A stretch of DNA of 64,000 nucleotides from assembly GCA_951406725.2 (NCBI GenBank), contig OX597832.1, forward strand, positions 18,600,001 to 18,664,000, read 5' to 3'. This DNA is from Octopus vulgaris. Taxonomy: Eukaryota. Made by a program: the position numbers and the translations under genes. The notes under the pieces were generated by a model. It searched no databases and was not told the origin of the DNA. It saw only the letters and a program-made list of their open reading frames with translations. The number at the start of each line of letters is the position of its first letter. Within the stretch, counting starts at the first letter, position 1. Shown piece by piece: positions 4,901 to 52,904 of the stretch.

Positions 4901-5310
4901 GAATACAGAGAAGAAAAGAATGAAAGTTTCTTTAATATTTGATGTAGTGTGTTATATGTCTGATGAAATGAGATAACAAAATTACGAAACCGTTTAAATT
5001 CATAATCCAATGTAATTAAGGCTGTAACGGCATGTCATGACATGAGAAAAAAATAAACCATTTTGTCTATTTTTGTCGGAATTTGCACTAAAGTTTGCAA
5101 TCTCTGGTTGTTCTTATTACAACTGGGGAAACGAATAAACGTGTTTCGTTCGTAGCAGACACCCTTAGGCACATTCTTCATACTTCGTATACATACATGC
5201 ATATATATACATACATACATATATATTTAAATATATATGCACATGCATATGTATATATACATGTACATATATATATCATATAAACACCCATACATACATA
5301 CAACATAAAA

Positions 5311-28804: not shown

Positions 28805-29102
28805 TACACACAAACATATGGAAAGAGAAAGATAGATAGTTATGTAGGTGGATATATAGAATATATACAGGAACACTAGCTAGTGTTCCATGAGGAAATG
28901 TTATTTGTTGAGCAGCTATATGTATTTGGAACGTTTTTCAGAGGTTTATAAACAAACCTAACATTGAAAGGCATGTTGGAACCTCAACATAAAGCAGATT
29001 CGATTATGATTGTATACGTGGAGTTGTAAACGTAACACTAGTTGTCGTACCTCTATCTGTATAGACACAATTTCCATTAAAGGCGCCAAGAAAGGCGCCA
29101 GA

Positions 29103-29393
29103 CTCTTAGGACCGACTGACCCGTGCTCAAACGCCGTTTGCACGGAACCATTCTCCACTTCGATCTTCGAAGGTTTCGTTCGAATATTTGCTACTACCAC
29201 CGAGATCTGCACCTGCGATCGGCTTCACCCGGGCTCATGCCCGCGGCTTCCATGCACACCACGACGCCCTCCTACTCGACCGGGTATCGGAAAGTCGCCT
29301 CGCCTCCGATCGTGCAACTTGTCACCCGGCCAGTCCGGCATCGGTCGCTCGCTCAAGCGCCATCCGTTTTCGGGGCTGGTCGATTCGACAGGT
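29103..29393 (-). pseudogene. Isolated 28S rRNA fragment (~290 bp)
   Basis: Plus strand CTTAGGACCGACTGACCC, GAATATTTGCTACTACCACC.AGATCTGCAC, CCCTCCTACTCG, AGCGCCATCC.TTTTC.GGGCT.GT.GATTCG are reverse complements of conserved eukaryotic LSU blocks; sharp GC rise; no flanking rDNA. Confidence 0.92.
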
Positions 29394-29419
29394 TGTTGGA
29401 GAATTGTTAGGGGTTCTTG

Positions 29420-41837: not shown

Positions 41838-41984
41838 GGCGCAGGCGTAGCAGTGTGGTAAGAAGCTTGCTTCGCTGGCACATGTTTCCGGGTTCAGTCC
41901 TTCTGTCTGGCACCTTGGTTAAGTGTTTTCAACTATAACCTCGGACCAACCAAAGACTTGTGAGTGAAACTCAAAGAAGACCGT

Positions 41985-42072
<88 letters not shown>

Positions 42073-42430
42073 TGTCTGTACTTGGCTTACAAAGATTAAA
42101 TCCTAGGGTCAATTTACAGATGCATATCTAAGAGATGAGGAATTAAATTCATTATTTAAATTATTTACATTTGACGTATATTTGACCTCATCTTGATTCT
42201 TGTAAGCACAACGTTTCAACTGATATACATACCCTCCAGCCTTCATTAGGTATCTTGGTGAAATTTCTAACCTTGGTTCTCATTCCTAAGCTATTATTCG
42301 ATGTTTTTGATATTATTAACAACAAAAAGGATGAGAACAAATATCCGTCAAATATAAATAATGTAGGGTCAATTTTTAGAGTAAAGGCCGTGTTCCATCA
42401 TGGCCGCAGTCAAACGACCGAAACAAATAA
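41838..42430 (+). mobile_element. SINE family B interrupted by a 248-bp insertion
   Basis: GGCGCAGGCGTAGCAGTGTGGTAAG head; tail TAAAGGCCGTGTTCCATCATGGCCGCAGTC resumes after the TSD. Confidence 0.85.
42116..42363 (-). mobile_element. TSD-bounded mini-element with decayed hammerhead and inverted repeat (Penelope-like end)
   Basis: 12-bp TSD TAGGGTCAATTT at 42104-42115 and 42364-42375; minus strand CTAATGA-A-GGCTGGA...TCAGTT-GAA-ACGT-T; inverted arms about 42161-42203 / 42318-42361. Confidence 0.8.
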
Positions 42431-51119: not shown

Positions 51120-51210
51120 TTTTAGTACAATTGTTTCATACAAAGACAGGCTTTATTACAAGTTGCAAAAATTGCAGCAGATAAAAGTGTCCCGTACTCA
51201 TCAGCTAAAA
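51120..51210 (-). ncRNA. Type I hammerhead ribozyme, intact core, long stem II
   Basis: Minus strand UUUUAG-CUGAUGA-GUACGGGACA...UGCAAUUUUUGCA...UGUCUUUGUAU-GAA-ACAAUUGU-A-CUAAAA: 6-bp stem I, palindromic stem III, GUA cleavage triplet. Confidence 0.85.
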
Positions 51211-52454: not shown

Positions 52455-52677
52455 AATAGACGAATGCATACTCACAAACACACACACACTGACATATATA
52501 CTTTGTGTATATGCATGAAGTAAAATCTACTTGTGTATTGACCTCTGCCTGACTGTATATTCTTAATAAGATGGTGTGTTGGAGAATCGAACGCACAATC
52601 ACATGCTCGCGATGATAACTACTTTACTATCTGACATGTTCCATTCACATACACAAATAAACGCATATACAGAGAAA

Positions 52678-52715
<38 letters not shown>

Positions 52716-52721
<6 letters not shown>

Positions 52722-52904
52722 ATAGAAGGAGCTTCTACAGGACTAGGACTGTTTCATTCAAATGAAATCATCAGGAAGCTCGTAAATCATTTGAATGAAA
52801 CAGTTCTAGTCCTGTAGAAGCTCCTTCTATAAAATAAATTAATTTACTCTGCCATGTATTGAGTACCTTATTTACTGTTGTTAACCCCGACTCAACCCGG
52901 GACC

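Follow-up and report, generated by a model that had tools for sequence, protein, structure and literature searches.

A decayed head-to-head pair of Penelope-like pseudo-LTR arms inside an Octopus vulgaris SINE, and its candidate tRNA-headed parent element

The window analyzed here is the whole 64,000-nucleotide stretch of Octopus vulgaris contig OX597832.1 (GCA_951406725.2, positions 18,600,001 to 18,664,000, forward strand), and positions below are counted from its first letter. Within it, a tRNA-type SINE of family B is split by an insert composed of a long arm and a short inverted arm, both of them fragments of the pseudo-LTR of a Penelope-like element (PLE). The features of the locus are as follows:

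41838-42115, plus strand: 5′ part of the host tRNA-type SINE (family B) through the left target copy; its 5′ 165 nt differ by 17% from the family majority
42104-42115, plus strand: left copy of the 12-bp target-site duplication, the last T of which also fits the element 3′ end
42115-42304, minus strand: long arm, the 3′ 186 nt of the Penelope pseudo-LTR up to its distal 3′ end, differing by 12% from the family majority
42115-42156, minus strand: tail of ~40 nt, found in the long arm only
42204-42254, minus strand: decayed minimal type I hammerhead with G5 changed to A (42247; core numbering as in PMC4209133), a 4-nt insertion in loop II and weakened stems
Between 42209 and 42208, minus strand: predicted hammerhead cut
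42116-42283, minus strand: decayed first ~55 codons of the parent open reading frame (ORF), with the start codon at 42283-42281 and the frame broken by the 4-nt insertion
42305-42315, minus strand: what is left of the (AAT)n/(AAC)n linker, where the two arms meet; fuller copies have a tRNA-like head 5′ of the linker, which this copy lacks
42316-42365, plus strand: short inverted arm, pseudo-LTR positions 95-144 of 186, up to the proximal 3′ end
42364-42375, plus strand: right copy of the target-site duplication, the first two letters of which also fit the short arm
42364-42430, plus strand: 3′ remainder of the host SINE

The 12-mer that bounds the insert occurs exactly twice in the 64-kb window, at 42104-42115 and 42364-42375 with 248 nt between the copies, and its chance per site is 1.2e-7 from base composition. 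Without the insert and one copy of the 12-mer, the flanks are collinear with the 3′ part of the host SINE majority apart from one 1-nt gap, and both copies show the same two differences from that majority; this collinearity, together with the two common changes, marks a true duplication. The initial annotation had described a 248-bp retro-insertion with a 12-bp target-site duplication in a SINE tail, and the unique 12-mer pair and collinear flanks bear it out. Its claim of unambiguous boundaries holds for the insertion site and fails for the exact ends, which are uncertain by 1-2 nt because the element sequence (42115-42365) reaches 1 nt into the left copy of the duplication and 2 nt into the right copy. 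The insert carries a long 3′ end at left and a short one at right, and 42319-42365 is an inverted match of 42157-42203 (47 nt, 81% identity, E 7e-7); the inverted copy of a post-cleavage segment noticed earlier is therefore real, except that it starts ~5 nt past the predicted cut and not at the cut. The hammerhead remnant reported on the minus strand is present at 42254-42204. The insert had also been described as lacking an ORF, which is right in that no frame is open and incomplete in that the long arm retains the decayed first codons of the parent ORF. A blastx search with the insert against 120 relatives returned nothing significant (best relevant E 1.5). Among the contig joints listed from 7 runs of 5 organisms, none skips the insert to give an empty site and no contig spanned the locus; the right junction is matched by one contig each of organisms B and C, with just 24 letters on the insert side against a bar of 31.

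A scan of the genome (2.8 Gb in 227 contigs) with a reverse transcriptase (RT) motif pattern that we take to be of Penelope/Poseidon type gave 145 matches, compared with 3 for the control. The insert's repeat is carried by 25 of 30 RT-motif loci, and in 17 of the 30 the repeat head lies in sense ~1 kb downstream of the motif, just past the ORF stop codon. The parent ORF matches RVT_1 and resembles RT/GIY-YIG-type proteins at up to 65% identity, among them relatives with the same domain set; its majority frame of 705 codons contains RT motifs and, near the C-terminus, GIY-YIG-like words. The pseudo-LTR stands at both element ends in L116 and L117. The ORF begins inside the repeat, passes through the hammerhead and runs on into the body, and the reading frame of the repeat aligns with the N-terminal part of the relative P0004 (residues 11-55 at 50%, E 2e-8 against 120 proteins), which together make the insert a pair of pseudo-LTR fragments holding the decayed first codons of a PLE. 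A short intron in the tail (GT...AG words) was considered and dropped, as the frame reads through and matches P0004.

We provisionally assign the parent to the endonuclease-positive PLEs of the Penelope/Poseidon clade because of the RT motif and because a Cys-rich linker is lacking, unlike in the genome's other PLEs. The GIY-YIG matches of the genome belong mostly to other PLE families without the insert's repeat. The Cys-linker PLEs, presumably Neptune-like, were rejected as partner, with no common tail in 30 loci and one unlinked copy in 20 longer stretches. A Cys-linker family that includes L061 and L062 has many 781-codon open frames as well as an upstream frame of 330-360 codons, and looks recently active. 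The sampled copies of the insert's own family are all old, with a mean of 6.6% from their own majority (37 segments) compared with 12% for the window long arm.

A DNA search with the insert gave 4,185 candidates. Scores were computed for 40, and apart from the insert itself 37 of 39 match the long arm only, at 82-87% identity. One end is fixed and common to the matching places; on the other side an (AAT)n tract leads to a tRNA-like head, often with a second, inverted arm beyond it. A DNA search with the head returned nothing but the head itself, as such searches pass over common words. The best match of this head among 30 tRNA loci of six isotypes is the genome's own tRNA-Arg(TCG), with a score of 44 against 14 for shuffles (maximum 26); the A and B boxes are intact at tRNA spacing and the acceptor stem is lost. 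No tRNA was called in the head by ARAGORN (23 loci) or by Rfam at gathering score (5 loci). Of 72 head-anchored arms, 11 continue into the ORF and 2 run on for 14-24 nt. The other 59 end at tRNA positions -8 to +16, no more than 24 nt upstream of the anchor, some of the +12 to +16 values being too high because the extension was ungapped; 45 of the 72 stop between -8 and +6. Loci anchored just inside the 5′ part of the ORF reach the head in 3 of 30 cases, two of which (L310 and L319) begin at the head while the third is tandem. A 12-nt palindrome sits at the 5′ edge of the head and could end cDNA synthesis without any start site.

The sense strand of the 2.6-kb majority contains no TTTT, where shuffles give 5.1 and control elements predict 7.8, and the deeper 666-nt 5′ majority likewise has none on its sense strand. 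The control comprises eight frames of other elements with 29 TTTT in 9,747 nt (2.98 per kb, Poisson P 4e-4), and decayed copies of the parent reach 0.31 per kb. Stricter nulls give the deficit a P of 0.09 (first-order Markov), 0.27 (second-order Markov) or 0.03-0.05 (synonymous-codon). GGGG is also absent from the 2.6-kb sense strand (0 vs 2.8), two further control stretches have just 1 and 2 TTTT runs in 1.2 kb, and the low Phe content of the parent protein is common to its four closest relatives.

The head is tRNA-derived and promoter-like, arm 5′ ends pile up at it, both non-tandem copies with a full 5′ end begin there, and the coding strand has no run of four T, which would act as a polymerase III terminator; these features suggest transcription by polymerase III. 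A short repeat-only RNA would probably be made by this polymerase; for the full element mRNA the same origin is a tentative idea, rated somewhat below an even chance. The proposal that joins these parts is just as tentative: an autonomous protein-coding PLE may have swapped its promoter for a tRNA-Arg-derived polymerase III module, purged TTTT from its 2.6-kb sense strand and had its mRNA made by polymerase III, while the short RNAs of solo repeats would spread like a SINE built into its carrier and each insertion would consist of two reverse transcriptions from two fixed starts. Autonomous elements are argued to need polymerase II in the available part of PMC10886601, and the Drosophila Penelope promoter is LINE-like and TATA-less according to the excerpt of PMC2377424.

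It is also possible, although we lean away from it, that the head is a captured piece of a tRNA or SINE in the 3′ UTR, that polymerase II reads the element and that the 5′ ends pile up where RT stalls at structure. Such an origin would agree with the polymerase II-like promoters of known Penelope elements (PMC2377424 and PMC3846280, in their accessible sections), with the two AATAAA words in the element body and with a TTTT deficit that is marginal under codon-aware nulls. It accords less well with the start at the head of both non-tandem copies that have a complete 5′ end (L310 and L319), with the retention of A and B boxes at tRNA spacing though the acceptor stem is lost, and with the scarcity of TTTT even in decayed copies relative to the control elements.

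The shape of the insertions was surveyed in 70 tail-anchored loci, in the order in which they lie on one contig; 67 were kept after removal of 3 duplicates. Head-to-head insertions of two arms make up 39 of the 67, with lengths of 149-960 nt. The 3′ ends of arms cluster twice on the 186-nt tail reference, at 138-159 and at 176-186, and one long end is paired with one short end (~40 nt shorter) in 35 of the 39 (p 1.5e-7 against independence, with 50% expected), the remainder having two short ends (3/39) or two long ends (1/39). The same pairing is seen in 10 of 11 clear cases among ORF-bearing insertions, L102 having been left out as interrupted. Duplications scoring at least 9 accompany 22 of the 39 two-arm insertions compared with 1 of 150 shuffled pairs, and a clear duplication is absent in 15 of the 39. 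The head or the ORF may be on either arm, and in many pairs (L177, L181, L184 and L021 among them) each arm contains sequence that the other lacks, so that in many pairs neither arm can have been copied from the other. Junction microhomology taken from BLAST ends is too coarse to count.

The pairing of a long with a short end is consistent with reverse transcription having started twice, once on each target strand. In the part of PMC11167929 available, the Poseidon protein cleaves and extends both strands in vitro and two RNA start sites bound the tail; the origin of PLE inverted repeats with a one-sided tail is described as unresolved in the accessible sections of PMC8557442 and PMC11167929. 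Our preferred reading, to which we give a probability of roughly 0.8, is that the insert represents decayed, head-to-head, 5′-truncated pseudo-LTR arms of an abundant autonomous Penelope/Poseidon-type element, likely laid down by two target-primed reverse transcriptions, each on its own strand of a cut staggered by 12 nt, with a template RNA likely made by polymerase III from the tRNA-derived head. The element's endonuclease would nick both strands ~12 nt apart at an A/T-rich spot of the SINE; one cDNA would begin at the distal start and stop in the (AAT)n linker, and the other would begin at the proximal start and stop after ~50 nt. The two cDNAs would then be joined at 3-4 nt of microhomology, and filling of the gaps would yield the duplication.

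With the same parent, the second arm might instead arise by fold-back, in which a single cDNA folds onto itself at a short palindrome or at microhomology and serves as its own template, with later central deletions producing the asymmetry. The short arm of the window copy lies wholly within the long arm, so fold-back or central deletion of a longer palindrome would fit this copy too; many arms end in a hairpin centered at the 5′ edge of the head, and self-priming is proposed for palindromic junctions in the available text of PMC3846280. We nevertheless regard fold-back as unlikely, since single arms also end at either site, and pairs with the distal tail on the short arm and the head or 1-2 kb of ORF on the long arm would need a much larger ancestral palindrome.

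Exact 24-mers were matched genome-wide 4,703 times for the tail, 1,712 times for the head and 705 times for the ORF end, with 0 for controls; where copies are decayed these counts are minima, and the head 24-mer is rich in CpG. Headless two-arm insertions like the window copy account for 9 of the 39 and measure 149-373 nt, none of them 248, and an exact pattern for the window-type junction occurs at 3 places genome-wide. It is very improbable that the insert is a discrete mini-element (248 bp, non-autonomous, with a hammerhead) or else a SINE of its own that Penelope carries: repeat-only copies do far exceed ORF-linked ones and L021 and L114 have nearly the junction of the window insert, yet head, linker and tail all belong to the autonomous element, headless pairs have no constant length, and arm lengths vary among the three places with an exact junction match. 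The mini-element of the initial annotation thus gives way to variable-length ends of an autonomous Penelope-like element, and the comparison of copy lengths argues against a fixed unit. A separate Penelope-carried SINE was dropped, as the head stands just behind the parent stop codon and also at the parent 5′ end. As regards SINE features, a tRNA-derived head with A and B boxes is found in the fuller copies and is absent from the window copy, and the head is part of the autonomous partner, unlike that of a separate SINE. As regards non-LTR retrozymes, head-to-tail tandem units with intact hammerheads were not found and head-to-head arms dominate. The window copy is a dead stub of a known PLE class.

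The insert had been taken to place these elements as younger than SINE family B. This is correct for the window insert with respect to the SINE copy that it splits and does not extend to the family, as nesting occurs both ways and the divergence ranges overlap. At 2 loci (L028 and L211) a SINE B copy interrupts the (AAT)n tract of the repeat, and at 2 (the window and L290) it is the repeat that interrupts SINE B. SINE B has the higher median divergence, 8.6% over 101 hits (quartiles 5.5-13.4%), against 5.9% over 41 hits of the repeat (quartiles 5.0-8.1%). SINE B and the PLE were apparently active over overlapping periods, the PLE being somewhat younger on average. The (AAT)n tract also serves as a landing pad for other sequences, with RT-coding ends inside it in L014, L016 and L020 and a second common repeat in L008, L013 and L017. 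The RT-coding ends look R4/Dong-like to us.

The family majority of the repeat folds as a minimal type I hammerhead with stems I and II (-13.6 kcal/mol). Hammerhead cores were read in 64 arms, of which 36 are canonical and 13 differ at the free position 7 only (49/64 together), and the core change of the window copy, G5A, is seen in 2 of the 64. G5A in the hammerhead core blocks cleavage. The window copy combines this change with the 4-nt loop insertion and with stems that do not form in the predicted fold, and its hammerhead is predicted to be inactive. An Rfam scan of the whole window and of the insert detected no hammerhead. The family majority resembles the metazoan PLE minimal type I hammerheads, as far as they are described in the available part of PMC4209133, in its 5-bp stem I and long stem II, in the extra base after position 9 and the G10.1-C11.1 pair, and in a palindromic zero-loop stem III; the window copy differs from them in having neither G5 nor the fold.

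Elsewhere in the window, a small inverted pair at 52640-52790 lies beside a TA tract and includes a hammerhead-like motif at 52752-52774 (minus strand); it is 90% identical over 99 nt to a repeat adjoining a Cys-linker PLE in L078 and represents a second, unrelated PLE end family. Another hammerhead-like motif at 51134-51204 (minus strand) has 71-72% matches in L039 and L072, both with Cys-linker PLEs, and hammerhead-core-like words at 4960-4989 have no match among the loci compared. A decayed large-subunit rRNA fragment at 28955-29400 (minus strand) scores above the Rfam gathering score.

Among known systems, Poseidon_Ac of the green anole (PMC11167929, available part) is similar in that its hammerhead overlaps the ORF start, two RT starts ~30-40 nt apart define the tail, both target strands are extended and insertion has no need of hammerhead cleavage; unlike here, the part available mentions no tRNA-type head and does not state a strict long/short pairing per insertion. 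Pen2/Pen2a of Adineta vaga and the general PLE layout, in the accessible sections of PMC3846280 and PMC8557442, share the inverted 5′-truncated pseudo-LTR, the tail at one end, duplications of 8-10 bp, the first codons in the repeat and a palindrome at the repeat 5′ end, but the Pen2/Pen2a repeat has a putative TATA and initiator where the octopus repeat begins with A and B boxes. The hammerhead SINE-like repeats Sm-alpha of Schistosoma (PMC6765202, in part) likewise have a polymerase III-type promoter followed by a hammerhead; they are non-coding and tandem, whereas the octopus repeat bounds a protein-coding element as its terminal repeat, and its arms are inserted head-to-head. The TRIMp3 elements Cassandra, Helenus and Ajax, as covered by the excerpt of PMC10886601, also have a small-RNA-derived polymerase III promoter in the terminal repeat, but they are non-autonomous LTR elements of <1.3 kb whose autonomous partners are expected to use polymerase II. 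Animal non-LTR retrozymes have a type I hammerhead related to PLE pseudo-LTRs and, in contrast to the octopus family, form head-to-tail tandem units with intact ribozymes (10.64898/2026.07.22.740005, available portion).

A literature search, with Repbase, Dfam, most subscription journals and the 1994 octopus SINE paper outside its scope, found no description of a tRNA-type head in a PLE pseudo-LTR, and the main text of PMC13282606, which covers 190 Penelope-like families, has no mention of hammerhead or pseudo-LTR in the part available. The family is a tRNA-headed autonomous PLE with strictly paired ends. A PLE driven by a tRNA-type promoter and free of polymerase III terminators, if true, would be an exception to the assumption that protein-coding retroelements use polymerase II (PMC10886601, in part); it would show how a SINE-like element could derive from a PLE and raise the matter of how an uncapped RNA is translated. 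With thousands of copies in the genome, the pairing of long and short ends would allow the two-primer model to be tested directly.

Several rearranged copies were noticed along the way. At the palindrome center of L028 and L015 stand several tandem repeats of the initial ~30 nt of the tRNA-like head, as if synthesis had been re-primed time and again at the RNA 5′ end. In seven loci (L313, L315-L317, L325, L333 and L335) the copy breaks off shortly after entering the ORF and resumes in another head or repeat, so that the result is a partial tandem with an internal deletion. L126-L128 (contig C3, 140.42-140.46 Mb) contain the same rearranged two-arm PLE insertion three times, ~17 kb apart, as a local tandem duplication.
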